NCBI GenBank assembly: GCA_900554385.1
Contig: USHE01000001.1
Location: 1 to 40,664 of the forward strand
Source: an uncultured bacterium
GTDB taxonomy: Bacteria > Cyanobacteriota > Vampirovibrionia > Gastranaerophilales > Gastranaerophilaceae
Direction: 5' to 3'
DNA length: 40,664 nt
Shown: one piece after another, positions 3,097 to 23,355 of the stretch
Position numbering within the stretch: position 1 is the first letter of the stretch
Layout: each line of letters begins with the position of its first letter
Notes under the pieces: model-generated
What the model was told of the DNA's origin: nothing
Databases searched by the model: none
Seen by the model: the letters and a program-made list of their open reading frames with translations, nothing else
Made by a program: the position numbers and the translations under genes

Positions 3097-4182
3097 ATGT
3101 CAATTGGTTTTGATTCAGGGTGTAATAATATAAATTTTCAAGGCCGCTATAATTTAAGTAATTACAAAGGTTGCTTAAAAGGCGGAGCAATCGGTGATGC
3201 TCTCGGATGGCCGATAGAATTTCACAGGCTGGCTGATATAAAACGCAAATATGGTCCGAACGGAATTGATGATTTGGTTTTAAACAGCAAAGGCAAAGCT
3301 GAGATTACTGATGATACCCAGATGACAATGTTTACGGCTGACGGACTTATAAAATCAGCACTTAAAAAACTTAATTTGTCTGAAATGCCGGATATGGAAG
3401 ATGTATTCAAATCTTATAAACTCTGGTTAAATACTCAATTTGGCAAAGCTCCAACAAAGAATGAGGGGTGGATTAGCGGGTTGCGGAGTTTATATGCAAC
3501 AAGAGCGCCGGGAAATACGTGTATTTCTGCTATTCGGAGTAATAATCCGGGCAGTATCGCAAAAGCAATAAATAACAGTGCCGGCTGCGGAGGTGTTATG
3601 AGGGTTGCTCCGGCAGGTTTAATGTACAAAGATAATCCTAAATTAGCTTTTAAAGTTGGAGCAGAATGTGCAGCATTAACTCATAGTCATCCGCGCGGAT
3701 ATCTTCCTGCAGGAGTTTTAAGTGAAATGATTGCACACATTGTGAGTGGAAAAAATATTGAAGGTGCTGTTTCTGATACTATGAAAACTCTTAAAACATA
3801 CAGCGGGCATGAGCCTGTTTCTATGTTAATGGAGAAGGCTCAAAGACTTGCAAAATCAAATACAAATCCGTCAGATGCTATAAACGAACTCGGTGAAGGC
3901 TGGGTGGGCGATGAAGCAATTGCAATTGCTTCATATTGTGCGTTGAAAGAACCGAAAGATTTTGTCAAAGCTGTTAAAATGGCGGTAAATCATAACGGAG
4001 ATAGCGATAGTACCGGTGCAATTCTCGGGAATATTCTCGGAGCAGAACTCGGGGTTGAAAAAATTCCGTCCAAATGGGTTAAAAATGTTGAATTGAGTGA
4101 TGAACTTGGACAGCTTGCAAAAGACTTGTTTGTTAAACCGCAAGATATTGAAAATTCAGTAACAAGGTATCCGATAGATTAA
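3097..4182 (+). CDS. ADP-ribosylglycohydrolase (DraG/ARH family) with a ~25-aa N-terminal extension
   Basis: Family motifs GAIGDALGWPIEF, ITDDTQMTMFTADGL and NHNGDSDSTGAILGNILGA (di-metal-binding Asp/Thr clusters). RBS aggaga lies 6 nt upstream of the ATG. Confidence 0.9.
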   Translation: MSIGFDSGCNNINFQGRYNLSNYKGCLKGGAIGDALGWPIEFHRLADIKRKYGPNGIDDLVLNSKGKAEITDDTQMTMFTADGLIKSALKKLNLSEMPDMEDVFKSYKLWLNTQFGKAPTKNEGWISGLRSLYATRAPGNTCISAIRSNNPGSIAKAINNSAGCGGVMRVAPAGLMYKDNPKLAFKVGAECAALTHSHPRGYLPAGVLSEMIAHIVSGKNIEGAVSDTMKTLKTYSGHEPVSMLMEKAQRLAKSNTNPSDAINELGEGWVGDEAIAIASYCALKEPKDFVKAVKMAVNHNGDSDSTGAILGNILGAELGVEKIPSKWVKNVELSDELGQLAKDLFVKPQDIENSVTRYPID

Positions 4183-4496
4183 TCTTTTTTCTCCGGATTA
4201 TCTTTGATGACTTTATATCTTCCTTCGGCTTTAAGTTTACTTAAATATTCATTTTCTTCTTTTAATGTCATTGTTTTCATTTTTTCAATATCTTCCGGAA
4301 AAAATTCTATTTTTTGATATTTGAATTCTAAATTGTTGCAGTCACTTGGGTATGGCTGTTTTGTATTTTTTACGGAATCTTTCGCAGTCGAACGTTCAAA
4401 GGTGTCCGGCTGCTGTTCTTTTAATTTATTCCATTTTGCTTTTTTAATTTTTTTAGGTAATTGTATATTGTTTATAGATGTAATTTTTTTTATCAT
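4179..4496 (-). CDS. Small protein, paralog B (105 aa), unknown family. Second gene downstream of the giant ART protein.
   Basis: SD aaagga upstream. The C-terminal ~55 aa (YPSDCNNLEFKYQKIEFFPEDIEKMKTMTLKEENEYLSKLKAEGRY) are near-identical to the 71-aa ORF just upstream. The N-terminus is basic. Confidence 0.7.
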   Translation of the reverse strand: MIKKITSINNIQLPKKIKKAKWNKLKEQQPDTFERSTAKDSVKNTKQPYPSDCNNLEFKYQKIEFFPEDIEKMKTMTLKEENEYLSKLKAEGRYKVIKDNPEKKD

Positions 4497-4507
4497 AAGC
4501 CCATCCT

Positions 4508-4723
4508 TTAGTTATCTTCGTTTTCATCATCATAAACTACAACGTAACGCCCTTCGGCTTTAAGTTTACTTAGATATTCGTTTTCTTCTTTTAAAGTCAT
4601 GTGCTTCATTTTTTCTACGTCATCCGGAAAAAATTCTATCCTTTGATATTTAAATTCCAGATTGTCGCAATCGCTTGGATATTCTTGTGCTTTTTCTTCA
4701 TTATTATTTTCGTTATCAGTCAT
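4508..4723 (-). CDS. Small protein, paralog A (71 aa), unknown family. It lies immediately downstream of the giant ART protein.
   Basis: SD gaaagga upstream. It starts 12 nt after the toxin stop. Core sequence EYPSDCDNLEFKYQRIEFFPDDVEKMKHMTLKEENEYLSKLKAEGRY with acidic termini. Confidence 0.7.
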   Translation of the reverse strand: MTDNENNNEEKAQEYPSDCDNLEFKYQRIEFFPDDVEKMKHMTLKEENEYLSKLKAEGRYVVVYDDENEDN

Positions 4724-4735
4724 TTTTTATCCTTT

Positions 4736-7700
4736 CTAGTTAGATACAGAACCTTTCAATACCCAGTGTCCATTTTTAAAGTCTATATCAATAATATTAA
4801 TATTGGAATCTTTCTGTAGTAAAAATTCACATTCGCCCTGGTTGTGTCCTTTTACGTTTACACCCTCAAGGAATACTCCCTTAGCTCCTTTTGGGACATT
4901 AAGTTCCCAGTGAATTGAACCTGACCAGACATTAGGGTCAAATGATGTTGACATAAAGCGTTCCTGTGTTGCAGTGAGGTTACCTTTTTTAACCATATTT
5001 TTAACTTTTTCGATTAGAGTATCATCGCCGGTTTGATTGAAGTGGGCAACCGCTTGTGCCATAGCTTTATCCAAAGTTTGTCCGTTAGGGAGTTTTACGG
5101 ATGCAAGCACTTCCGGCCCTTCTTTACGATATACTTTAATTGGTTCTTTTATAACCTGAGTATTAAGGTATGCCTGAACATTATCTATTTCTTGCTTGAT
5201 TTTTGGATTAAGCGGTGTATTGTGTTTCTTTAAATTTGTTAATCCGTTATTTATATCCATATAACCGCTGCCTTTGTAAAAAGCTAAGCTTCCAATCTGG
5301 TTGGCTGTAATCGGTTTTGTCTGTGCAATATTAAATACCGCATCCCAGTGAGCAGGTGTTAAATTGTTGAGACCAAATATCTGGCTGTTTTCAATGTTTC
5401 TGTATAACTGTATAAGAGCGTTCATATCTTTTTGCCATAGACCGATATACTTACCTCCATCCATATTAATCATTTTTGTTATTTTTTGAATATCTAGAGG
5501 GGTGAGAGGTTTTTCTATTTTGCTTATTATACTAGAACCGTAAGAACCGTAAGCGTTATGGTATTGCTGTTTGGTTGCATCGTCAAGTTTTTTCGTGTAA
5601 TTACCATAAGAATCTTGAACAAAGTTGTTCTTAACCAGCAGATTATTAACCTGAACTGCGCTTAATTGCTGTACTTTAGGGGTAGGGTTAAGAGCTTTTA
5701 GGTATTTTTCTTTTGCATCTATCTTATTAAGTAAATTTTCTTTTATCTTTTTATTTGTAGTGAATTGGAGAGCTTGTTTTATGTCGATTAAGTCTTCAGT
5801 TTGTTTGGTAAATGTAATCATTTTTTCAATGGTTGAATGCTTAATATCTGTCATATAATCAAGCATGGACTTATTGCCTTGAGGGGTTGCTTTAATTTCC
5901 TCAAGCATACTTTTTAGGAATTTCTTTCTCTTAAGCAATGCCTCTTTATACTGGGTAAGTCCCATATCGTCTAAGAGTTGTGTGATTGCAGAATCTTTCA
6001 GACTGACAGCTTTGTTCAATGATTTTATCATATCTTCACGTGTCATGTGACTGAAAATCTCTGCAGATTTTGCGTTAATATACGGGTCTAAGAGGGTTGT
6101 TATTTCTGTTGGAATTGACGTATAAGGTTTGTTTGCACCCTGAGCGCGGTAATCAAAAGTTCCGCCTGCGTCAAGTCGGATAATTTTACCGTCAGGTGTT
6201 TTTAGCATATTATCATTGGCTAAGCCGACAACATCCCAGTTCGCAAGCAATACGTCCATACCAAAGCCTTCGTTGGCTTTTGCTGTTGCCTGTGTAACTT
6301 TTGATAATTCCGGTATATATTTACTTAATGTTCCGTTTGTTCCGTCTGCTGCCTTAAAACTGTTCATCTCTGGAACATTAAGTCCTGCCATTTCATATAA
6401 TTTTGTTGCAAGAAGTTCTGTTTTACCCTGTGCGCCTCCGAATTTTGCATAGAAAAGTTCGCCGGTTTCTTTGTTAATTACGTAATAACCTTTATTAGAA
6501 CCGCCTTGAGTGCCGTTTAATATTTCAAACTGGACTTGTTTTCCGTTAATTGTGAATGTTTCTGTTGTGATTGATGTGGCTTTTTTACGTAATTCATCTA
6601 TTTTTTTAGATATAACAGGATCAGAGTTTTTAGCTGTCGGAATATCTTTGACAATAGTTACATCTTTGTGGGCTTCTATTACAAGTTCGCCGTGCTTTTT
6701 GCTTATAATAATATGGTGGCTGGCTATTCCGTCTTCATGTTTACCTATTTGGTATTTAACGTCTGGATAGTGCGTTTTCGGGTTCGTACAGCCTATCGCA
6801 AAGCTTTCCCCTTCTTTTAGGTTATTTATTAAATCTTTTAGCTTTGGATCGTTCATGTCTATAGTAACATTACCCAGTTTTAATTGGTCTACCTTTGACA
6901 AATCAAGAATATAAGGTTTGTATGTTCCGATAGCACCTACTGGTAATTCGTGTCCGAGTAGTTCGGCTGTAATGACATTATCAATATTATTTAATTTTTC
7001 GTTAATTTTTTGGTTATATTCAGCCTGTGAAAGCTTTTTCCCTGGTTCAAGAATTGTTAAGTGGAAGTCGTCGCTTACGCTTTCAAGGTCTGCTTTTGCC
7101 ATAACTTTTGCTAGTGGCAGGTTATCGCCAAACATTTTTACTACATCATCGGCGGACATATTGCCTTTGTTAAATTCTTTAAACCAGTGGTGATTTTCTA
7201 TCAGGTTTAGGATTTTTTCTTTTGTTGATTGAGGGTAATCAAATCTTTCCAGAATTTTTTCTGCGTATTTTTTACTCAATACACTGTGTCCGGTATCTGA
7301 GACACCGCTTCCTTTAAACTGTTTACCCATATCGTGGAGTAATATACTCATTTTAAGGATTTCTTTCGATTCCTGGGCTAAATTCGCTTCATCCGCATAT
7401 TTTAGTGCTTTTTGAAGGTTTTGTAATGTGTGAGAATCAAGGCTGTATGAGTGAACTCCGTTTTGAGGTTTACCAATCATGAACGTAAATTCCGGAACAT
7501 CTTTTATAAATTTTTGAAGTTCTGAATTCATTATTGCATCCGGTAGTTGAATTTCGTTTTGTTTTGCGTATTTGTTTAAAATATCAAGGACATTTTTATG
7601 TGCCTCCGTTTTCGCTTTTGCTGAAAGGTTAGGTATATCAACGAGTTCAAACTTACTGCCTTCCTGCTGGAATTTGATATTCAAATCAGCCATAACAGCA

Positions 7701-10700
7701 TTTCGTTCATTTTCAGGTAAGCTGTCCAGTTGTTTTTTAAGGTCTTTCATGAAATTATCATGTGAATATTTCAGCGGAATGCCTTGTTTTCCGTATTTCT
7801 TAAGATTGAGGTTTTGTAAATTGCTATCAAATGCCGTATCTGTAATAAGTTTTGATTTCGGCTTTTGCGGTGTTATTGTGGGAGTTCCTTCTAATTCTAC
7901 GTTTTTGTTCGCAAAAGTGCTGTATAAATCTTCTGTTTGTCCGAATTTAGCATTATACATGTCGTATTCGTATTTTAACTCATTTAGTTTGTCAGGAGAT
8001 GTACATTCCTCAATTTGTTTTTTCAAATTTGCTGAGTAGACATCAGGTTCAGGAATTTTTGCACCTGCAGGATATTCTGAGAGTGAAATATATCTTTCGG
8101 TAATGACATTATTATTTTTGTCCAGAATTTGTTCTTTTCCTGTTTCAAAATTCTTTTCAACCTGCACATCATTTTTTAATTCTGAGGTTGATTTTATTTG
8201 ATTTTTTTTGTTTTTTACCGTAGATTTTGACGGGGTGGTGCTGTTTCCGGAATTATATTCATATACTGTAGTATCACCTGATTTGTTTTTGATTAAAATA
8301 GGTCTGTCATTTGTATCAAGTGTAATTTTTGTACCGTCTGTTGCGTGTAAAGTTTTTTGTCCTTGTTTATTTGTTTCGGTTTTTATAACCTCAAAATCCA
8401 GCGAATTACTATCTTCAAAGAACGTTATTTTTGAAGGTTTTCCCGGTGTTGGGGGTTCCGGTTTATTGGTACCGTTCGGTGAAGGTGTTGGGGTATCGTT
8501 AGGTTTTGGCGCAGGGGCAGGAATGTCTGCCTCTACTGTTGGTTTATGTGTTTTAATATGAGATAATCTTGAGATTAACAGACCGCTTGCAAAGTCAATA
8601 AATGCATCTGTTTCTCCGTAATTGTCACCGGCAACTTTTGTTACCCCGTAGGAACCTGCCATATTCAAAATTTCTTCAGCAATTTCATTTGCAAGGGCTT
8701 TATTTGTAATGCCAAATGACTGCATAAGTTTAGGCGCAAGTATGCTTGAAGAAACACCGACTCCGGCAAATGACATATTCATCAATGTTTTTCTCATTGT
8801 TTCTTCAACGCTTTTTTTGTCACTAAGGTTTACTGCTGCTGTTGCGATACCTGTATTTATAATTTGAGTTGCAATTTGGGCTTTTTTATTGGTATTTTGG
8901 AGTTTTGTTACGGTTGCTGCTGCTTTATATGCCTTGTTTGCCATATTCGCAATTTTTATACCTTTTGCGCCCCATTTAGCTGCGCTTACTGCAAGTCTTG
9001 CGGCTGCAAGCTGTCCTAAGCCCGGAACAAATTGCAGTGCGACTGTACCGGCAATTTCAAACGCTGCTGTTGTGATTGTATCTGTTAATTGCTGGTTTTC
9101 ATTGAATTTTATAACATCTTTTACTATATCATTTGTTCCATAAGCACTCTTGGTAAGGAGATCCACATCTTTTGTCATTTGGTCAAGAGTTTTTCCGTTC
9201 GCAATTTTATGGTATTCTCGCTGATATGTTTGTTTAGATTCTCTAATGAATGTGTCAAGCACAAATTTTTTATCACTGTCAGATGTGCTTTCAAGACCTT
9301 TGTTCTGTGCATAAGCGGAAATTAGTTCATCAATCTCTGCGTCTTGATAGCCGAAAGCTTTTTTAAGTTCACTTTTCATTTCTGAATAATTCATATTCTG
9401 AGTTTTCTTTTCAAGTCCTGAGAATACTTTATATGAACTGTCAAATGCAGTTGCTGCTTCAAGATTTTCTCGTGCGGTTTGTCTTGCTTGAACTTTTTTA
9501 GGGTCAAATTCTATGCCGAAGATTTCTTTGTATAATTTTTTAAATACTGCTTCATCTTTTTTCTCGGCGGCTTCTGCAAGTTTTTTCACGTCTGCTGCGT
9601 GAGTTCCGAGTTTTTTGTCCATATCATCAATGGTTGTGCAGCCGAAAAGTCCGCAGACCCAATCTCCTGTCTTTGCAGCCCAGCCTTCGGCTTCTCTGGC
9701 ATCTTTGTATGTTTTTTGTGCTTTCTTGTTATTGTCTACAAGTCCGCTGTCTTTTTCATTAACAAAGGTATTCATTGCTTCTGCTGTTGAAACCTCAGGT
9801 GAGTCTTTGCTGACTTTTGTACTTACGGTTGACCCTCGCAAAAAGTCAAGGGCTTTTTCCATTCCTGATGGATTAATACTCCCGAAAGAACTAAATTCTT
9901 CTTTCATGCTTTTGAGAAATTCTGTTCTTGCATGGTTTATATCGCTTTCTTTAACTCCGGCTTTTTTGGCTGCAATAGTCATTTTATCCAGAATGAAATT
10001 TAATGCTTTTTGTCTAGATGCAGGTGAAGAACCTACTTCACTGCAAATTGTGTCTATTAAAGAAGAATCTCCGCTATTTTTCTCTACAACTTTTTCATAA
10101 TTATCCAGTACTTGAATAATATTTTCTTCAGTAATTCGGTTTAACTGGCTTTGGAAAGCTTGTTTCCCTACTGCTGCCGCATTATCATCACATGCTTTAT
10201 AGAGATTTTCGGCAATATCTTTTGCTTCTTTGTTTATTCTTATCTTTTTATTTATTTCTTTAATTTCTTTTTGTCTGTTTGTAATTCTATTGTACGTTTC
10301 ATCAGAAACTCCGGCAATAACTTTTTTGCCTTGAAGTTCTCCGTTTTTTACGTTCGGGTTATGCTTTTTGAGTTCTTCAACGCGAAGCTGCATTTCTCGA
10401 TCTGAAGGGTTTTCGTTGCCTTCTTGTTTGAAAAGTTGTTTTGCCAGTGCTTCAAATGTTTTTTGTCCTGCTGTAAAGGTTATGGTTTTTCTATTTGCAG
10501 CTTCATCACGAAGTCGTTTATCTTCTTCTTCTTTTTGCTCACGTTCAATCGCATCTTTTGTGTAATCTGCAATAGTTTCTTCTTTACTTTTTCTTCCTCG
10601 CAAAGCCATATCGTCGGCTTCTAATTCTCCGGGAATTTTAATTTCTTCACCGACAATAAAATATTTTGAATTTCCTTTTGTCTTAATTTTTTCTTCATTA

Positions 10701-11779
10701 AGTTTTTCAATTTCTTCCGGAGTTATGCCGAATTTTTTAGCAATTGCGTTTATGCTTTCGCCGTTTTGAACAATAATTATCGTATTGCCTTCTCCGTCGT
10801 ATTCGACTTGATAGGTTTCTCCGTTAATAGTTTTTGTTTGTCTTAATTTGTTTCCTTCTTTATTATAGGTGTTTTCTGTTATGTTTCCATTTTCGTCGAC
10901 TATAGTTTCTGTTGAAATTCCGTCTTCGTTTTGTTGTAGTTTATGGGTTGATTGAACTTCATTACCTTGTTTGACGGTTGTTATTGTTGTTGTACCCTGT
11001 GTGGTTGTTTCTGTTACAGTTCCGTCTTCGTTGTATTGGTATTGGGTAATTTTTTTATCTGCAGGAGATGTTCCGTTTTCAACTTTTTGTGTTAGCTGTT
11101 CTCCATTTGAGGTTATTTGATAAGTTTTGCTTCCCGTGCTGTTTTGTACAACCCTTGTTTTAGCCGTACCGTCTTCATAATTAATAGTTTCTGTGCCATT
11201 ATTATTTGCTAACGTTTTTACTGTTTTCTTCGGCTTGTTATTTTCATAAACCGTTTTTATTGCGTTTCCATCATTGTCAAAATATTCCTGTGAAATAATA
11301 TTGTTGTTTTTATCATAGATGGATGTTTGGTTATCTTTTATTATGGTAGTTTTTTCTTCATTCTGATTGTATTGTTCGATTGTTCCGTCATTATATTCTG
11401 TTTGGATAATTTTGTTGCCATTATCTTCAAATGTTGTAGAGTTCTTTATATTTTGGCTGTTGTTATTAATGTTGCCTAGAAAACTAAATAAATCTTCTTT
11501 TGTGACAGTTGTGTCATTTCCTTTAAAGAGTGCATCAATAAATTTTTTAGCTTCTCTATTTGAAAGGTTAGTATTTTTAGCATACTCCTGAAGCATACTT
11601 TTTAGATTTGCAACTTCTTTATCCTCAAGAATATTGTTTCCATTATCAAGAGCATCAAAAATAGCAAGCAGTTTCTCATCTTTTATTTGTTCTCTTTTAA
11701 AACCACCTTTTAAATTAGTTAAATCTATTTTTCCAGACTTACCCTTGTTCAATGAAAAATTGCTGTAGTCCTTACTCAT
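4736..11779 (-). CDS. Giant multidomain protein (2347 aa). Order of elements: YD-like repeats, LysM, long helical region, Gly/Ala-rich hydrophobic segment, Pro-rich linker, HD phosphohydrolase, possible FHA, atypical kinase-like domain, C-terminal ADP-ribosyltransferase.
   Basis: Uninterrupted 7-kb ORF with SD gaaagg upstream and no N-terminal signal peptide. Domain motifs are listed in the sub-features below. Confidence 0.9.
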   Translation of the reverse strand: MSKDYSNFSLNKGKSGKIDLTNLKGGFKREQIKDEKLLAIFDALDNGNNILEDKEVANLKSMLQEYAKNTNLSNREAKKFIDALFKGNDTTVTKEDLFSFLGNINNNSQNIKNSTTFEDNGNKIIQTEYNDGTIEQYNQNEEKTTIIKDNQTSIYDKNNNIISQEYFDNDGNAIKTVYENNKPKKTVKTLANNNGTETINYEDGTAKTRVVQNSTGSKTYQITSNGEQLTQKVENGTSPADKKITQYQYNEDGTVTETTTQGTTTITTVKQGNEVQSTHKLQQNEDGISTETIVDENGNITENTYNKEGNKLRQTKTINGETYQVEYDGEGNTIIIVQNGESINAIAKKFGITPEEIEKLNEEKIKTKGNSKYFIVGEEIKIPGELEADDMALRGRKSKEETIADYTKDAIEREQKEEEDKRLRDEAANRKTITFTAGQKTFEALAKQLFKQEGNENPSDREMQLRVEELKKHNPNVKNGELQGKKVIAGVSDETYNRITNRQKEIKEINKKIRINKEAKDIAENLYKACDDNAAAVGKQAFQSQLNRITEENIIQVLDNYEKVVEKNSGDSSLIDTICSEVGSSPASRQKALNFILDKMTIAAKKAGVKESDINHARTEFLKSMKEEFSSFGSINPSGMEKALDFLRGSTVSTKVSKDSPEVSTAEAMNTFVNEKDSGLVDNNKKAQKTYKDAREAEGWAAKTGDWVCGLFGCTTIDDMDKKLGTHAADVKKLAEAAEKKDEAVFKKLYKEIFGIEFDPKKVQARQTARENLEAATAFDSSYKVFSGLEKKTQNMNYSEMKSELKKAFGYQDAEIDELISAYAQNKGLESTSDSDKKFVLDTFIRESKQTYQREYHKIANGKTLDQMTKDVDLLTKSAYGTNDIVKDVIKFNENQQLTDTITTAAFEIAGTVALQFVPGLGQLAAARLAVSAAKWGAKGIKIANMANKAYKAAATVTKLQNTNKKAQIATQIINTGIATAAVNLSDKKSVEETMRKTLMNMSFAGVGVSSSILAPKLMQSFGITNKALANEIAEEILNMAGSYGVTKVAGDNYGETDAFIDFASGLLISRLSHIKTHKPTVEADIPAPAPKPNDTPTPSPNGTNKPEPPTPGKPSKITFFEDSNSLDFEVIKTETNKQGQKTLHATDGTKITLDTNDRPILIKNKSGDTTVYEYNSGNSTTPSKSTVKNKKNQIKSTSELKNDVQVEKNFETGKEQILDKNNNVITERYISLSEYPAGAKIPEPDVYSANLKKQIEECTSPDKLNELKYEYDMYNAKFGQTEDLYSTFANKNVELEGTPTITPQKPKSKLITDTAFDSNLQNLNLKKYGKQGIPLKYSHDNFMKDLKKQLDSLPENERNAVMADLNIKFQQEGSKFELVDIPNLSAKAKTEAHKNVLDILNKYAKQNEIQLPDAIMNSELQKFIKDVPEFTFMIGKPQNGVHSYSLDSHTLQNLQKALKYADEANLAQESKEILKMSILLHDMGKQFKGSGVSDTGHSVLSKKYAEKILERFDYPQSTKEKILNLIENHHWFKEFNKGNMSADDVVKMFGDNLPLAKVMAKADLESVSDDFHLTILEPGKKLSQAEYNQKINEKLNNIDNVITAELLGHELPVGAIGTYKPYILDLSKVDQLKLGNVTIDMNDPKLKDLINNLKEGESFAIGCTNPKTHYPDVKYQIGKHEDGIASHHIIISKKHGELVIEAHKDVTIVKDIPTAKNSDPVISKKIDELRKKATSITTETFTINGKQVQFEILNGTQGGSNKGYYVINKETGELFYAKFGGAQGKTELLATKLYEMAGLNVPEMNSFKAADGTNGTLSKYIPELSKVTQATAKANEGFGMDVLLANWDVVGLANDNMLKTPDGKIIRLDAGGTFDYRAQGANKPYTSIPTEITTLLDPYINAKSAEIFSHMTREDMIKSLNKAVSLKDSAITQLLDDMGLTQYKEALLKRKKFLKSMLEEIKATPQGNKSMLDYMTDIKHSTIEKMITFTKQTEDLIDIKQALQFTTNKKIKENLLNKIDAKEKYLKALNPTPKVQQLSAVQVNNLLVKNNFVQDSYGNYTKKLDDATKQQYHNAYGSYGSSIISKIEKPLTPLDIQKITKMINMDGGKYIGLWQKDMNALIQLYRNIENSQIFGLNNLTPAHWDAVFNIAQTKPITANQIGSLAFYKGSGYMDINNGLTNLKKHNTPLNPKIKQEIDNVQAYLNTQVIKEPIKVYRKEGPEVLASVKLPNGQTLDKAMAQAVAHFNQTGDDTLIEKVKNMVKKGNLTATQERFMSTSFDPNVWSGSIHWELNVPKGAKGVFLEGVNVKGHNQGECEFLLQKDSNINIIDIDFKNGHWVLKGSVSN
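4739..5302 (-). other. Domain: C3/VIP2/iota-type ADP-ribosyltransferase (ADPrib_exo_Tox-like), R-S-E class with E-x-E
   Basis: SLAFYKGSGYMDINNGL (the Y..IN..L helix). VYR (R2218, nt 5126-5128). FMSTSF (S-T-S, nt 4943-4951). ELNVPKGAKGVFLEGV. GECEFLL (E2316-x-E2318, nt 4826-4834). The order and spacing parallel C3: LYRG / YISTSL / KVAKGSKAGYI / GQLEMLL. Confidence 0.85.
6080..6577 (-). other. Domain: atypical protein-kinase-like fold (actin-fragmin-kinase / PI-kinase-like catalytic signature)
   Basis: GGSNKGYYVINKETGELFYAKF (Gly-rich segment plus Lys). MDVLLANWDVVGLANDNML (catalytic-loop-like; NWD at nt 6233-6241). IIRLDAGGTFDY (DxG Mg-binding-like). Confidence 0.5.
6644..6817 (-). other. Domain: possible FHA-like module just upstream of the kinase-like domain
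   Basis: FAIGCTNPKTHYPDVKYQIGKHEDGIASHHIIISKKHGELVIEAHKDVTIV loosely follows the FHA pattern iGR..d..l.d..iS..Ha.i....g.l.i.d..s.v. Confidence 0.3.
7055..7462 (-). other. Domain: HD-superfamily metal-dependent phosphohydrolase
   Basis: H...HD...H...D pattern: HSYSLDSH, ILLHDMGK (HD at nt 7331-7336), GHSVLS, LIENHHW, AKADLES. Confidence 0.7.
8429..8542 (-). other. Pro/Thr-rich linker
   Basis: PTVEADIPAPAPKPNDTPTPSPNGTNKPEPPTPGKPSK. Confidence 0.8.
8555..9082 (-). other. Gly/Ala-rich hydrophobic/amphipathic segment (candidate membrane-insertion or translocation region)
   Basis: TITTAAFEIAGTVALQFVPGLGQLAAARLAVSAA, IATQIINTGIATAAVNL, MSFAGVGVSSSILAPKLM and AFIDFASGLLISRL. These are small-residue zipper-like helices. 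Confidence 0.45.
10628..10780 (-). other. Domain: LysM peptidoglycan-binding motif
   Basis: IIIVQNGESINAIAKKFGITPEEIEKLNEE...YFIVGEEIKIPG matches the LysM consensus (Y.V..GDTL..IA.+YG....+L...N......l..Gq.l.IP). Confidence 0.8.
10775..11437 (-). repeat. YD/RHS-like beta-hairpin repeats (coding). A second short block lies at aa ~1118-1235.
   Basis: Recurring Y-x-x-(D/E/N)-G-(T/N) units: EYNDGT, YFDNDGN, INYEDGT, YQYNEDGT, VDENGN, TYNKEGN, VEYDGEGN. Confidence 0.5.
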
Positions 11780-11967: not shown

Positions 11968-12387
11968 ATGATAAAATGGAAAAAAGAATACTATCTTATC
12001 TTGGTTTCATTAATTATTTTATCATCACAATTATATATAATTATGATTTTTGAAGATTTCGCTTGTAATACTAAAAGCAATTCTTGTAAAGTTATTCAAA
12101 CAAATATTTTTGGAGCGAAAAATATTATCGATATCTGTAAATATTCAGATTTGGATTCTATTAAATATGAATATCGTCTCAGAACACGCGTTTCTCATTA
12201 CTCTCATTATATGTTAAAAGCCGTAACGAAACATAATGAGCATAAACTAATAACTACAAAAAGATTTTATAAATTCCAAGATTATTCAAAAATTATAAAT
12301 AACTTAAATGATAAAATACAAAAGCAGGAAAATTTCAGTTATAGATTTTGGGGCTTATCTAATAAGTATAAACATTTTTTTAGGTAG
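11968..12387 (+). CDS. Hypothetical small membrane-anchored protein (139 aa)
   Basis: SD taggag upstream. One N-terminal TM helix (YYLILVSLIILSSQLYIIMIF). No recognisable family. Confidence 0.55.
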   Translation: MIKWKKEYYLILVSLIILSSQLYIIMIFEDFACNTKSNSCKVIQTNIFGAKNIIDICKYSDLDSIKYEYRLRTRVSHYSHYMLKAVTKHNEHKLITTKRFYKFQDYSKIINNLNDKIQKQENFSYRFWGLSNKYKHFFR

Positions 12388-12631
12388 AAGCTGGGATATT
12401 CTCTTTAGCTAACTCATAGATGAAAAATTCGTGCGTGTTCGTTTATCCATTCCAGGTGAAGCGGACATAAATGTAATCCCTCCAACTCAAAGCCAACTGT
12501 TATTTTACAGCTAAAAGAAATGTATGTAAAACGACAGTTGTTTTGATTATTTTGAACAGGAAGTTTGAGTATTTATAGAAACTAGCAAAAAAAAATTTTT
12601 CGGGTTTTAGTAATCTTGTAAAGGAGATTTT

Positions 12632-13339
12632 ATGCAAATATATTCTAATACAAATAATTTCTATACGAATAACCAAAATTATAAAACTTTTTCAAAAAAT
12701 CAAACCCCAGTAGCATTTTGTAGCCAACAAAAGGTTTTGGATAATGTTTCAAAAGCGGCTTTAAAAGAAATGTATAAAGAAAAACTAAGAAATGCGATAA
12801 AAAATTGTGATGTAAAAGTACTTTTTGAAGCAGTAGGAATTAAAGCAAAAAAATATTTATTTGGGGAATATTATACCGTTTATGGATATGGCAAAGGTGG
12901 CGGCGCAACACATAATTTTTCTGAGCTTGGTGTTGATGAAAATAAATTATTCAAAAAGATAAAAAGGGTAAAAGGTATTCTTGATTTAAGAGAATCAAAT
13001 GTTGAAGATTTGGGTAATCTTAAGCGAGTAGATGGAAAAATTTTGATGTATCATGAGCAATGGCCTCCGAAAGGTTATGCTCGTATAGTGCTCTGGGATA
13101 ATGTAATAGTAAAACATTATTCAGCTCCTAGAGATAAACATCATTATTTCCCAAGTACCGACTCTTTACTTAAAGATAGTAATCTTTCTAGTCGTGCCGA
13201 TGATTTTTATCTTCCATCTACAGACTATCTACTTCGTAAAGATAATAGTCGTTTCACTTATGACTCTACTTTCTCTATGTTAACATATAATGATAGTGGT
13301 GAACTGATTAAAGTTCGACATTTTACAGGCGGAATATAA
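12632..13339 (+). CDS. Hypothetical protein (235 aa) with Asn-rich N-terminus and a short internal repeat
   Basis: SD aaaggaga upstream. Internal duplication YFPSTDSLLKDSN / YLPSTDYLLRKDN. No recognisable family. Confidence 0.6.
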   Translation: MQIYSNTNNFYTNNQNYKTFSKNQTPVAFCSQQKVLDNVSKAALKEMYKEKLRNAIKNCDVKVLFEAVGIKAKKYLFGEYYTVYGYGKGGGATHNFSELGVDENKLFKKIKRVKGILDLRESNVEDLGNLKRVDGKILMYHEQWPPKGYARIVLWDNVIVKHYSAPRDKHHYFPSTDSLLKDSNLSSRADDFYLPSTDYLLRKDNSRFTYDSTFSMLTYNDSGELIKVRHFTGGI

Positions 13340-13383
13340 CAAAAAGGAATATATTTTTACAAGTTTAAAAAGAGGAAAATTAA

Positions 13384-13743
13384 ATGGATTTAAATATTGC
13401 TAAATACCCTTCTAATAGCAGTTTTGGAAGTTTGAATATTAAAAAATCTGCTTATAAAGCTAAAGCAGGGGCACTATATATAAATTTTGATAAGGACAAG
13501 TTGGAAGAGTTGGCAAAAACGTGTAATATAAAAATTTCAGGTGGCAAGGAGTACATGGGGCTTTTTAGCTTAGATTATTTGAATATTACAGTTACCCAAT
13601 TAAAAAGAAGTCGAAATCCCTTTATAAGATTATTTAATATTGATGCAGTAACAGGTAAATTTGCCACAGAGGCCAGACTTGAAAGTACTACTTTAATTGA
13701 TATAACAAGACAATTAGTCAAGAAATTACAAAATAGATTGTAG
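13384..13743 (+). CDS. Hypothetical protein (119 aa)
   Basis: SD agaggaaa upstream. No recognisable family. Confidence 0.55.
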   Translation: MDLNIAKYPSNSSFGSLNIKKSAYKAKAGALYINFDKDKLEELAKTCNIKISGGKEYMGLFSLDYLNITVTQLKRSRNPFIRLFNIDAVTGKFATEARLESTTLIDITRQLVKKLQNRL

Positions 13744-20067: not shown

Positions 20068-23000
20068 ATGCTAGAAAGCATATCACAAATCAAAGATAAA
20101 GTTCATTCGTCAATGTATGAAACCGAAGGCAGAAAAACATACGATGTTGATAGTATCGTTGCCGAATTAAAGAAAGACGAAAAATTTAAGAATTTCAAAG
20201 AAAATGAACTTTATTCTTATGCATACGGCTTGATAGCGAACCATAATGCTCATGCGCTGAAAGGTGCATTGCAGAGCATGGGTTTTGATACAGGCAAACC
20301 TCAAGATCCTTTCTGGAGTCAGTATACCTATGAAGAAATCCTTAACATGGTTAATGACGGAGTTCAAGTGCCTCAGGAATTTATCGATTGGGCGTACACA
20401 ATGCAGGATTCTGATACCACGGCTTATCAGATAGAAGATTCAAGTGAAGACCCTAACGCTTATGACAATCTTGCTGGTGAAACAGGAAATATTGACCAGA
20501 GTGATATTCAAAAACGCGCTCAGGCTTTTGCTTCTAAAGCTCAAGCTCAGGAAAAACTTATTAACAATAAAGTTGAAGAAACAAAACCTATATTAAATAC
20601 GGTTCTGGCTGAAAAAAACGAATTGGAAAAAAATCAGAAATCAGCTTTAGAAAATCTTGCGTCTATGACTAAAGAGTGGAAAACTCTTGATAGAAAGTTT
20701 AAAAGCGGTACTCCTTTGTCTGAAGCCGAACAGAATAAGTATCAAGAACTTGGTTTAGCCTTGAATGACAGCAATAACGGTATTCTTTTGCAGACCAAAA
20801 AAGTTAGTGATGATATAGAAGAACTTATGACTCAGATTGATAGTATTGATATGCTATTAGGCGTTAACGAAAAAATTAACGCTGAAATTGAAGATATCGG
20901 TACAAGAATGTCTTGGTTTGAAGGTAATAAAAAGCATATTATCTTGCCAACAAACAATGGTAATCAAGTTACAGGGCTAAGTGCCGCATTCTATGTTGCC
21001 GCAATGGGTAATAATCTTGCTTACGATACAGGTTTGGCAGGTGTAAATCTGTTCTTTAATAATATGGAAGTTCAAAATCAACAGGAAATTCATATTAATA
21101 CAGCTGTCCAAACTCAAAAACAAGTAGATGTTGTGAATAATGCTGCAGACAATCAGGACGATAATCTAAAATATACAACCAACAAACAGTCTGAAAATAA
21201 AAACGACGATAATAAGACAGAACAAAACAACAATCCTCAAAATGGAGTTCAGCAACAGGAAACAGATGCAAATGAAATTATTAATCCTGAAAAAACACAA
21301 CCGAAAACCCCTCAGGCAGATGCAAAAGTTCCGGTACAAACAGAAGAACCGCTGATTTCTCAAGAAGAACCTGAAAATACACTTACAAAGGCTTTGAATT
21401 CTGAAAATAATCCAAAAACAAATGCTATAAATGCGCAATTCAACTCAAATGTTGCAGAAAATACTGACAATGCTCAAACTCAACAAGTTGCTGCAGATAC
21501 AACGGTTCAAACTTCTGCTCAAGCTGCCCAAACAACAGAAACTGAAGGTGCAGAAGATATTGCTGCTACAGATGAAGCCGGCGAAGTTACAGAAACTCCG
21601 GATACTTCTGTTGAAACAGAAGATCCGCTTAAAGCTGAAACTTCTCAAATGGTATCAGAATGTGAAAACAGAAATAATGCTATGGTTCAGGCTGAACAAC
21701 AAATTCAAGCTAAGGTTGAAGAAGTTAAGAAAATTAGAGCAAACAAAAGTAAAGATGATGCACAGCTTAAGAATGAATTGACAAAAGCTGTTACTGAATA
21801 CGATAAATTAGCACAAAAAGTTCAAAATGGTGAAACTTTATCAGATAATGAACAAAAAAGAGTAAAAGCATTAGAAAAAGCTATTAATGCAAAAAATGGT
21901 ACTATTATTACAAAAATTAAGGATAAAGTTACTGCATTAACAGGATTTGCGGATGCTTTAAATAATGATATTCAGCAAACTAAAGTTAATCAGGAGTTTG
22001 GTGAGCAGGCTGTTGCAAAAGGTAAAGAATATGCAAAAGCAACATTAGGCGATAGAGAATATCTTAAAGATTCAATGTTCGGTTTTGTTCATTTTAGTCA
22101 ACTTCCTAAAGAAAAGCAATATGATCTTCTTTATGGTAAAAAAGGTGAATCTGTTGGTCGTGACGCTATTGATAACGGAGAATTGCTTATCAGTAATGCT
22201 GCGGCTTCTCAGGAAAGATTAGCTAAGTCTTTACCTCTTGCAGGCTTTGCAATGAATTATTCGCAGGAACTCAATACTAAGCTTTCTGAAACTAACCAAA
22301 AGGTTAATGCTATAAAACAAAATCTTCAAGAGTCTGCAGAACAACAGGCAGATAATACCAATGGTCCTTCAAATGCAGAAGGCGAAAATTCTTCATCTAA
22401 GAAATCTAAAAAGAAAGATGAAGTTACCAAAGAAGATGGGCAAAAAATTGAGCAGCAAGGTAGAAAAGTTGAACAAGAAGGTAAAGAAGCCAAAAAAGAC
22501 GGACAAGATGCCAAAAAAGATAAACAAGCTACTGATAAACAAATTAAAAAAGAAACCGCGGCGTTAAAGGCTGATGAAAAGAGAATTGTTAATTATACTA
22601 AAGATTCTCAGCAAATTAACCAGCAATTTGAAGAAATGTCTATAGAGCTTGATGCTATTTTGGAAGCCAAAGCTCAAGCTTCAACAGAGCAGGAAAGTCC
22701 TGCTATGCAAGCAGGTCCGGCTCCTGCAAGAGCTTTAAATGCAAGAGGTGCTAACCCTAGAAGCGTTGGCTTAAATAATAGTGCGCCTGCTCAAAATATG
22801 AATGACAATATGTCTTCTCAGAATGATAATAATGCAAAACTTATGGCTATGGCTGCGGCTGTTCCAAATCTTGAAAAAAGATTGAAAACAAATGACAAAA
22901 CTATTAATACTATTTCAAAAGCGGCAACTGCAAAAAATAAAAAATTAAATAAGCTGTATAACTTGAAATATAAACAAGCTCAAGCTGACATGCGTGCTAA

Positions 23001-23355
23001 AGAAAAAAGCATGAAGAAGAATGAAAAACTCCAATCTACTGTTACTAAGACAGGATATATGTTCACTGGAACAAAACTCACAGGTCTTGCTTTGATGTCA
23101 ATGCCATGGTCTGCTGCTGTTGGTGCTTACATGTACGGTATCGGGAAATATGGTGAAATTACGTGTTACGTTACTAATGCGGCTATAGATGTTGCAAACG
23201 GTAATTTCTTGGGAGCTTTAGTGAACGTTGGTGCCGCTGCTTTAAGTTACTTCACAGGACCGAAAACCATCGGACCTGCAAATGCGGCTGTAAAAGGAGC
23301 TGCTACAGAGGGCGCCAAAGAGGTTGCTAAAGAAACCGGTAAAGAAGCTGTTTAA
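20068..23355 (+). CDS. Large coiled-coil / low-complexity protein (1095 aa as called) with a C-terminal hydrophobic hairpin. It ends at an in-frame TAA inside a KE-rich repeat.
   Basis: RBS aaagaggt upstream and no signal peptide. Long heptad-rich helices. A Q/N/T/E-rich disordered block (aa ~340-540) and a K/E-rich block. Two hydrophobic helices: LTGLALMSMPWSAAVGAYMYGIG and FLGALVNVGAAALSYFTG. Confidence 0.8.
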   Translation: MLESISQIKDKVHSSMYETEGRKTYDVDSIVAELKKDEKFKNFKENELYSYAYGLIANHNAHALKGALQSMGFDTGKPQDPFWSQYTYEEILNMVNDGVQVPQEFIDWAYTMQDSDTTAYQIEDSSEDPNAYDNLAGETGNIDQSDIQKRAQAFASKAQAQEKLINNKVEETKPILNTVLAEKNELEKNQKSALENLASMTKEWKTLDRKFKSGTPLSEAEQNKYQELGLALNDSNNGILLQTKKVSDDIEELMTQIDSIDMLLGVNEKINAEIEDIGTRMSWFEGNKKHIILPTNNGNQVTGLSAAFYVAAMGNNLAYDTGLAGVNLFFNNMEVQNQQEIHINTAVQTQKQVDVVNNAADNQDDNLKYTTNKQSENKNDDNKTEQNNNPQNGVQQQETDANEIINPEKTQPKTPQADAKVPVQTEEPLISQEEPENTLTKALNSENNPKTNAINAQFNSNVAENTDNAQTQQVAADTTVQTSAQAAQTTETEGAEDIAATDEAGEVTETPDTSVETEDPLKAETSQMVSECENRNNAMVQAEQQIQAKVEEVKKIRANKSKDDAQLKNELTKAVTEYDKLAQKVQNGETLSDNEQKRVKALEKAINAKNGTIITKIKDKVTALTGFADALNNDIQQTKVNQEFGEQAVAKGKEYAKATLGDREYLKDSMFGFVHFSQLPKEKQYDLLYGKKGESVGRDAIDNGELLISNAAASQERLAKSLPLAGFAMNYSQELNTKLSETNQKVNAIKQNLQESAEQQADNTNGPSNAEGENSSSKKSKKKDEVTKEDGQKIEQQGRKVEQEGKEAKKDGQDAKKDKQATDKQIKKETAALKADEKRIVNYTKDSQQINQQFEEMSIELDAILEAKAQASTEQESPAMQAGPAPARALNARGANPRSVGLNNSAPAQNMNDNMSSQNDNNAKLMAMAAAVPNLEKRLKTNDKTINTISKAATAKNKKLNKLYNLKYKQAQADMRAKEKSMKKNEKLQSTVTKTGYMFTGTKLTGLALMSMPWSAAVGAYMYGIGKYGEITCYVTNAAIDVANGNFLGALVNVGAAALSYFTGPKTIGPANAAVKGAATEGAKEVAKETGKEAV

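Follow-up and report, generated by a model that had tools for sequence, protein, structure and literature searches.

Introduction

The principle of a toxin–immunity pair made of a writer and an eraser of ADP-ribose is already described in the Imm-ARG, Tre1-Tri1 and DarTG systems. DarG, the antitoxin of the last of these, joins an ADP-ribose eraser (a Macro domain) to a separate toxin-binding part, and Tri1 also protects against non-cognate ADP-ribosyltransferases (ARTs). ADP-ribosylglycohydrolases (ARHs) were defined in 2012 as immunity proteins (Imm-ARG) to polymorphic toxins with R-S-E type ARTs (Zhang et al. 2012, PMC3482391), and the immunity to Tre1 works both by physically blocking the toxin and by reversing its modification enzymatically (PMC8120803). 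Here, we analyse a locus from an uncultured bacterium of the Gastranaerophilaceae (Vampirovibrionia), in which a giant protein ending in an ART domain is encoded next to two small open reading frames (ORFs) and an ARH gene. It lies in the window, i.e., the whole 40,664-nucleotide stretch of DNA that was analysed (assembly GCA_900554385.1, contig USHE01000001.1, positions 1 to 40,664 of the forward strand). We put at roughly two in three the probability that this is a polymorphic-toxin locus, combining an ART cassette and its allele-specific small immunity proteins with a generic enzymatic eraser.

Gut Melainabacteria are common, uncultured members of animal and human microbiomes. Our literature search found no paper tying Melainabacteria or Gastranaerophilales to ARTs or polymorphic toxins of this kind, and the locus would be the first conflict system described for gut Melainabacteria.

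The ART Tip, the Small ORFs and the Candidate Eraser

The giant gene (4736..11779, minus strand) encodes a predicted polymorphic toxin of 2347 aa and ~262 kDa. It is followed by a short small ORF (4508..4723, minus strand; 71 aa, pI 4.3) and by a longer one with a basic N-terminal extension (4179..4496, minus strand; 105 aa, pI 9.5), both candidate cognate immunity proteins or inhibitors of the ART. The ARH gene (3097..4182, plus strand; 361 aa, PF03747), a candidate generic immunity enzyme, runs convergently to the 105-aa ORF, with which it shares 4 nt (4179–4182).

The ART occupies the tip of the giant protein, where the swappable cassette (4739..5656, minus strand) spans aa ~2042–2347 and the catalytic domain aa 2155–2333. 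The Pfam scan of the full-length protein missed this domain and found HD and LysM only; scanned alone, the last 264 aa match PF03496 (ADPrib_exo_Tox) over aa 2155–2333 with 78 bits (cutoff 23.4, E=8e-22). Among PDB sequences, the segment matches the solved CdtA, iota Ia and C2-I (E=3e-6 to 5e-3), with its VYR, STS and ExE in register with their catalytic motifs. R2218, S2277, E2316 and E2318 are invariant across 12 related ARTs at 25–52% identity. Judged by these alignments, the ART is real and its catalytic residues are under selection. The ExE motif together with the DraG-like ARH suggests arginine as the acceptor.

The ARH matches PF03747 with E=1.5e-74, its DDT and GDSDST metal-site motifs are invariant across orthologues, and it is 75–98% identical between loci. 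Among solved structures it is most similar to DraG (E=1.5e-16). It scores far below both the DraG equivalog TIGR02662 (87.2 bits, cutoff 337) and the Tri1 equivalog NF041672 (64.4 bits, cutoff 490), and matches the PDB entry 6DRE with E=1.9e-9 only. A side observation concerns the PDB entry 8ZA7 (chains A and B), in which Listeria Lmo0067, of the ARH fold (E=2e-12 to the window ARH), is in complex with Lmo0066, a protein with a weak ART-like match to the window ART (E=0.013). The entry suggests another ART–ARH pair crystallised together; in our literature search the paper describing it was not found, Lmo0067 was unmentioned, and Lmo0066 appeared in genomics and mutant-screen papers only.

With 81% identity over 54 aa (E=3e-33), the two small ORFs are paralogues, and they share a core of ~45 residues with the pattern N-L-x-F-K...K-I-x-F-F-P-E-D-x-E-K-M-K-x-M-S...E-Y...L-K...G-R-Y. 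This domain has no match in Pfam, NCBIfam, PHROG or PADLOC. Paralogues within one locus are 58–93% identical (mean 73%), compared with a mean of 45% across loci. They evolve in concert in each locus, which fits both of them tracking the same ART allele. A near-identical 71-aa ORF (same 90% cluster) is present in an NCBI metagenome-assembled genome (MAG) labelled Brachyspira sp.

A sequence-only reading of the window had named all of these elements, and most of its description stands: the C-terminal R-S-E triad, the paralogy of the two downstream ORFs and the convergent, overlapping ARH with intact metal-site motifs were all borne out. Its description of the ARH as DraG-like holds at the level of the superfamily (PF03747) but fails at the level of the DraG equivalog. 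The architecture it listed (LysM, YD-like repeats, HD, kinase-like, ART) was recovered by Pfam for LysM, RHS, HD and ART, and by AlphaFold2 with Foldseek for the kinase-like fold. The lack of type VI and type VII secretion system (T6SS, T7SS) genes nearby was likewise seen in Pfam scans of the window ORFs, which found no component of the type V system (T5SS) either. The co-occurrence of ART, small ORFs and ARH in related genomes, which that reading had named as a check, is documented below.

Co-Inheritance, Cassette Exchange and Co-Divergence

The order of giant ART gene, two small ORFs and convergent ARH is kept in L001, L002/3, L004/5, L093 and L094, where the giant proteins are only 42–68% identical to the window protein and the flanking genes are unrelated. 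A count seeded with the ARH took in the species-representative genomes in which the ARH is at least 76% identical and the flanking DNA long enough; 8 of 8 (L013–L019, L049) have the full four-gene unit, again between differing flanking genes. More distant Gastranaerophilales ARHs (44–56% identical) adjoin shorter convergent ART proteins, and in the same ARH-seeded neighbourhood test homologues from Firmicutes and other phyla had no adjacent ART. When the scan was seeded with the small domain instead, an ART ORF stood immediately upstream on the same strand in 16 of the 21 informative metagenome loci, the ARTs including stand-alone proteins of 270–370 aa. L111 and L117 are exceptions, in which a 181-aa ORF that is not an ART (L111:362-907 and L117:5336-5881, both plus strand; no ART profile match, no PDB match) precedes the small-domain ORF.

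Two exchanges show which parts of the locus move together. At one syntenic site, between RadA-CinA and DciA-DHH, the whole cargo was swapped: L002 carries an ART-type giant protein, two small ORFs and an ARH, whereas in L006/7 the cargo is calpain-like and accompanied by one unrelated 112-aa ORF, without an ARH. The N-terminal 1118 residues of the L006/7 protein are 55% identical to the window protein. The second exchange is finer. Between L002 and L049, the backbone through the kinase-like domain is 92–96% identical and the ARH 98%, while the ART domains are 41% and the small ORFs 50% and 43% identical. At codon ~2107 of P0013 (~aa 2042 of the window protein) the two loci go from ~90% to ~50% DNA identity, and exactly at the boundary of the ARH gene they are back at >90%. 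The ART tip and both small ORFs therefore form one recombination cassette, with the ARH outside it.

The same division is visible in the rates of divergence. Across eight loci, ART divergence follows that of the two small ORFs (Spearman 0.57 and 0.69) but not that of the ARH, HD, kinase-like domain or N-terminal module (|rho| ≤ 0.28), these values being descriptive only as the locus pairs are non-independent. In this set, pairwise identity averages 81% (ARH), 73% (HD), 60% (kinase-like domain), 48% (ART) and 48–49% (small ORFs). The relatives show a conserved N-terminal region with alternative C-terminal toxin domains, as well as joint displacement of the tip and the downstream immunity genes by recombination, both of which are hallmarks of polymorphic toxins; a recognisable secretion or trafficking module (T2, T5, T6, T7, PVC, MuF and others) was not found with Pfam and NCBIfam.

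The Small Domain Joined to Two Kinds of Eraser

When 1.84 billion representative proteins were searched exhaustively with a profile, 173 members of the small domain came up, nearly all of 40–135 aa. In that search the domain stands C-terminal to an ARH fold in P0258 (E=2e-7) and P0266 (E=6e-7), and C-terminal to a Macro domain in P0247 (E=3e-8) and P0277 (E=2e-6). ARH–small-domain fusions are also encoded in three GTDB genomes (L029–L031), in two of which (L029 and L030) no toxin gene adjoins them, and these two look like orphan immunity genes.

Some details of the neighbourhoods deserve mention. The fusion genes L029:9830-11230 and L030:9827-11230 lie on the plus strand; in L029 the convergent neighbours encode an acyltransferase and a biotin carboxylase, and the L030 neighbours are 87–96% identical. 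The Macro fusion P0247 (L095:568-2369) lies directly upstream of a CTP_transf_like-NADAR gene on a 5-kb contig where no toxin gene is annotated.

A Model of the Locus

The locus behaves as the toxin/immunity module proposed by the sequence-only reading, and the ARH is co-inherited with the ART. The block swap, the co-divergence and the fusions to both ARH and Macro erasers support the two small ORFs as allele-specific partners of the ART. The combination of an enzymatic antidote with a pair of stoichiometric immunity proteins is the best-supported model, in which the blocking and erasing roles would be divided as follows. The giant protein would be exported, displayed or delivered via its conserved N-terminal scaffold, whose LysM and YD sheet may bind cell-wall or surface glycans. 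Past a Pro-rich linker it would bear an exchangeable cargo, here HD, a kinase-like domain and the terminal R-S-E ART. The ART tip would ADP-ribosylate a target that bacteria also have, because of which the producer would need protection. The two small paralogues may bind and block their own ART allele, providing stoichiometric, allele-specific immunity, and the ARH would strip ADP-ribose from modified targets in the producer, providing catalytic, allele-independent immunity. Acting on the product and not on the toxin, the ARH would therefore not need to co-evolve and could serve any ART allele. Such an arrangement would distribute over separate genes the two modes of immunity that are united in Tri1 or DarG. 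As the producer needs immunity, the attacked cell is most likely a bacterial competitor.

Scaffold and Other Cargo of the Giant Protein

No N-terminal Sec signal peptide was found in the giant protein, and there is no longer reading frame upstream. It begins with a family-wide motif (11690..11779, minus strand; aa 1–30; ...GK.G.IDL..LKGG-LKREQ), which varies across the family as ...G.IDL..LK[GAS]G-LK[KR]E... and is followed by a canonical EF-hand loop. G26 of the motif is invariant in 33 diverse family members, and the motif possibly serves as an export or processing signal. It resembles double-glycine leaders in their C-terminal half, and I-D-L-x-x-L-K-G-G fits the spacing of the canonical double-glycine leader E-L-x-x-I-x-G-G. 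However, the variable position is −2 and not −1, conservation runs past the GG, residues 7–19 are modelled as strands (pLDDT 65–81), and no gene for a C39-peptidase ABC transporter was called in the loci inspected; on these grounds the double-glycine leader is kept as a tentative lead only.

The N-module (10628..11677, minus strand) comprises EF-hand-like helices (aa 35–108), a YD-repeat beta-sheet (aa 111–336) and LysM (aa 336–384), with Pfam scores of 24.9 bits for RHS_repeat (cutoff 22) and 25.5 bits for LysM. The AlphaFold2 model of aa 1–430 (pLDDT 92) predicts the EF-hand-like helices, an open single-layer sheet of YD hairpins, LysM and a long helix, and the sheet has Foldseek matches to OspA, RhsA and teneurin. 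Module B (8426..10492, minus strand; aa 430–1118) is helical, with a weakly hydrophobic Ala/Gly-rich stretch at aa 909–931, and is present in a subset of the family. It has no match in Pfam, PDB or PHROGs, and the latter also returned nothing for the N-module, the small ORFs or the neighbouring ORFs. Module B ends in the Pro-rich linker (aa ~1083–1116), which is the breakpoint of whole-cargo swaps.

The first cargo region (7490..8398, minus strand; aa 1128–1430) is weakly common with giant proteins bearing a PRTase-CE cargo, and the segment aa 1128–1445 has one PHROGs match (E=0.007), to a family of unknown function. The HD domain follows (6950..7492, minus strand; aa 1430–1610; PF01966, E=1.6e-10). 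Its nearest profiles are Cas3/Cas10-type HD nucleases (PADLOC Cas3-HD, E=1.3e-8), and the HD segment has no PDB match better than E=0.1. Apart from this generic Cas3-type similarity, PADLOC has no defence model matching the ART, the kinase-like domain, the small ORFs or the ARH. The orthologue P0027 is without the HD domain, and its locus still has the immunity genes.

The protein-kinase-like domain (5675..6604, minus strand; aa 1726–2035) has no sequence match in PDB, whether the search used a single sequence or a profile, and is outside all Pfam kinase families. Its fold assignment comes from the AlphaFold2 model (pLDDT 88), for which the top Foldseek matches are all kinases (CtkA, PI3K, YabT) with a probability of ~1 and TM-scores of 0.3–0.4. 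The domain shows the bilobal kinase architecture with its Gly-rich loop, Lys-Glu pair and catalytic and metal-binding Asp: G35/S36/N37 (GSN loop), K54, E63, D124 and D145 are invariant. It occurs without ART in P0049. In the P0042 locus, a 167-aa DSP/PTP-like phosphatase (L094:13854-14357, minus strand) is encoded between the small ORFs and the ARH; it scores above the cutoff for Y_phosphatase3 (31.5 bits) and weakly matches Tc-R-P, a 'polymorphic toxin system DSP-PTPase'. This phosphatase could be a second eraser, aimed at the kinase-like domain of the toxin.

The Family and Its Genomic Setting

Database search returned 219 relatives, all with the N-module and a subset also with module B; the module map was built on 120 of them. 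Past the Pro-rich linker they carry calpain-like, EF-hand, FHA, AvrB-like, DnaJ and PRTase-CE domains or other ARTs. A search of 2.9 million viral contigs turned up no relative of the N-module. One family protein, P0044 (L010:6001-13494), has a divergent C-terminal ART and lies in a Mu-like mobile element with MuF-like, Mu transposase C and integrase genes.

PRTase-CE giant toxins with a convergent ARH are encoded at L022:11116-20482, L025:5636-12060 and L023:12855-15239, and in L024, L027 and L032. The domain (PF24390) was confirmed in L022, L023 and L025, and our literature search found no paper mentioning it. Each of these toxins is then followed by its own conserved ~215-aa ORF, which had no Pfam match in the two members scanned. 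In L023 an orphan homologue of the small ORFs stands between the ARH and the PRTase-CE toxin, and looks like the remnant of an earlier cassette.

The closest loci belong to MAGs of Candidatus Gastranaerophilales/Melainabacteria from animal and human guts. The neighbours in the window are ordinary chromosomal genes of a diderm bacterium, among them those for an RND pump and an outer-membrane factor, LptF/G, CoaBC, guanylate kinase and TyrRS. Secretion-system genes were not found among the window ORFs scanned, nor was a T6SS component in the related loci inspected. By base composition the locus is not distinct as an island, and only three ORFs upstream of it are GC-poor. These ORFs (11968-13743, plus strand; 139, 235 and 119 aa) are divergent from the toxin gene, lie in the most AT-rich part of the window (GC 27–30%), match nothing in Pfam or PHROG and are not kept beside orthologous toxin genes. 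Farther along, a 1095-aa ORF (20068-23355, plus strand) has no Pfam match. A promoter and terminator scan was uninformative, because its counts equalled the chance expectation.

Discussion

Several observations weigh against the reading of the locus as a polymorphic-toxin system with two kinds of immunity. Export of the giant protein is only presumed, because Pfam and NCBIfam recognise no secretion or trafficking domain in it, and neither a signal peptide nor, among the window ORFs scanned, a T5SS, T6SS or T7SS gene was found. The window holds no immunity candidate for the HD or the kinase-like domain. Among divergent ART-bearing relatives, P0048 (L008) is without an ARH, and P0056 (L009) and P0044 (L010) are without both the ARH and the small ORFs. 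ARHs 56–68% identical to that of the window stand opposite giant family proteins ending in PRTase-CE, and the link between ARH and ART may therefore be partly positional. Additionally, the nearest solved relatives of the ART are eukaryote-directed actin toxins, eukaryote-like domains occur among the family cargo, and the source organisms are uncultured.

One rival possibility is that the giant protein is a multi-effector toxin directed at eukaryotes, similar to MARTX or the large clostridial toxins, with HD, kinase-like and ART domains acting in an animal or protist cell and with the small ORFs and the ARH silencing the enzyme in the producer before export. The similarity of the ART to the actin-modifying CdtA, iota Ia and C2-I, that of the kinase-like domain to the secreted Helicobacter pylori kinase CtkA, the calpain, EF-hand, FHA, AvrB and EDR1-like domains of the family and the origin of related contigs from animal or human gut samples would all suit such a toxin. 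Nevertheless, the match to CtkA has low TM-scores (0.38). The immunity-like genes are inherited in tight association with the ART and swapped allele-for-allele with it, and they also occur as the toxin-less orphans of L029 and L030, a pattern typical of interbacterial conflict. ART toxins that act only on eukaryotes (iota, C2, CDT, VIP2) are not known to have immunity genes, and we consider a host-directed toxin unlikely. An intracellular module of ART and small ORFs, of the DarTG or ParST kind and either a toxin–antitoxin (TA) system or an anti-phage one, would make the ARH a second antitoxin and the giant protein a cytoplasmic or envelope-bound defence effector. An eraser joined to a binding module is indeed the design of DarG, the HD domain resembles Cas3-type nucleases, L094 adjoins AbiEii and Mrr genes, P0044 is in a Mu-like element, and stand-alone ART genes of 270–370 aa are followed by small-ORF homologues in L102, L103, L112 and L118. 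Yet stand-alone cassettes are, according to PMC3482391, expected in polymorphic toxin systems as well. LysM and YD repeats are extracytoplasmic binding modules, the conserved N-terminus with variable C-termini and matched downstream genes follows the pattern of polymorphic toxins, and no relative was found in the 2.9 million viral contigs. With PADLOC also matching no defence model beyond the generic HD similarity, an intracellular role is quite improbable.

The strong conservation of the ARH (75–98%) and the closeness of its fold to DraG (E=1.5e-16) could also be explained if ART and ARH were an endogenous writer/eraser pair which, like DraT/DraG, regulates some process in the producer's own cell or envelope. 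In such a pair, however, a writer that diverges fast and is swapped by recombination next to a constant eraser would be out of place, as would the occupation of the same site by non-ART cargo without an ARH. The ARH scores far under the DraG equivalog cutoff (87 vs. 337 bits), and no nitrogenase or comparable regulated target was found near the locus among the window ORFs scanned, which together leave this explanation very little room. We favour the polymorphic-toxin locus with its split immunity.

A broader, two-part proposal can be made, which we regard as tentative and rather doubtful. Melainabacteria, for which no interbacterial weapon has been described, might have a self-contained and hitherto unrecognised vehicle for the export and delivery of giant polymorphic toxins, made up of the N-terminal motif, the EF-hand-like helices, the YD sheet, LysM and module B, independent of T5SS, T6SS and T7SS and possibly using a double-glycine-type signal; at the same time, the ~45-aa small domain might be a general ART-blocking module that is paired with ARH or Macro erasers. 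If the latter were true, immunity by blocking and erasing would be a widespread modular design and not a peculiarity of Tri1 and DarG.

The locus offers a natural, sequence-level demonstration of what appear to be allele-specific stoichiometric immunity and generic enzymatic immunity, residing in separate genes that evolve at different tempos. The new small domain, recurrently joined to two unrelated ADP-ribose erasers, is a candidate portable inhibitor of ARTs. The analysis also draws attention to a family comprising more than 100 giant proteins.

Comparison with Described Systems

Binary actin toxins (CdtA, iota Ia, C2-I, VIP2) provide the closest solved ART domains, with R, STS and ExE aligned. 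The identity is low, however, and the window differs in that no gene for a B (pore) component was found, its ART sits at the end of a giant protein, and immunity genes are present. The ART toxins of Rhs/YD type from Salmonella and Photorhabdus (PMC9825190, PMC8661411) share the YD repeats, the C-terminal ART and the downstream immunity gene with the window locus. In place of a closed Rhs cocoon, the window protein is modelled with an open beta-sheet of ~225 aa; it has no DPxGL autoproteolysis motif (DPxG[LWIV]), and no PAAR or VgrG context was found. Membership in the Rhs toxins was rejected because of the open sheet and the missing motif, and the scaffold lies outside the Rhs, CDI, LXG and other listed trafficking types.

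The likeness to DarT-DarG is in the fusion of window-type small domains to the C-terminus of Macro domains (P0247 and P0277). In contrast, DarT is a DNA-specific ART of another family, and DarTG is an intracellular TA system and not the tip of a 2347-aa protein.

The sequence-only reading had judged that the module matches no described system, which has to be withdrawn, as Imm-ARG (PMC3482391) and Tre1-Tri1 (PMC8120803) share its logic. With Imm-ARG the locus has in common that a polymorphic toxin ends in an R-S-E ART and that an ADP-ribosylglycohydrolase with an intact catalytic site is encoded beside it, and LysM and other adhesion domains occur in Imm-ARG-associated toxins too (PMC3482391). 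The scaffold of the window protein, however, is without a trafficking domain recognised by Pfam or NCBIfam, its cargo is multi-enzyme, a layer of small allele-specific partners appears to be added, and the lineage is Melainabacteria.

Tre1-Tri1, a T6SS-associated pair of Serratia proteamaculans, likewise combines an R-S-E ART toxin with an immunity enzyme of the ARH fold, and relatives of the window locus fuse the presumed blocking domain to an ARH. The window ART belongs to PF03496 and has no match to Tre1 (6DRH) at E≤10, the window ARH is far under the cutoff of the Tri1 model, and no T6SS genes were found in the window ORFs scanned. Unlike the N-terminal extension of Tri1, the presumed blocking element of window-type fusions is another domain, placed C-terminally, and in the window itself blocking and erasing are apparently split over separate genes, the two small paralogues and the ARH. 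What appears to be undescribed is the delivery scaffold, the small domain, a cargo that unites HD, kinase-like and ART domains, and the occurrence of the known writer/eraser logic in this host lineage.

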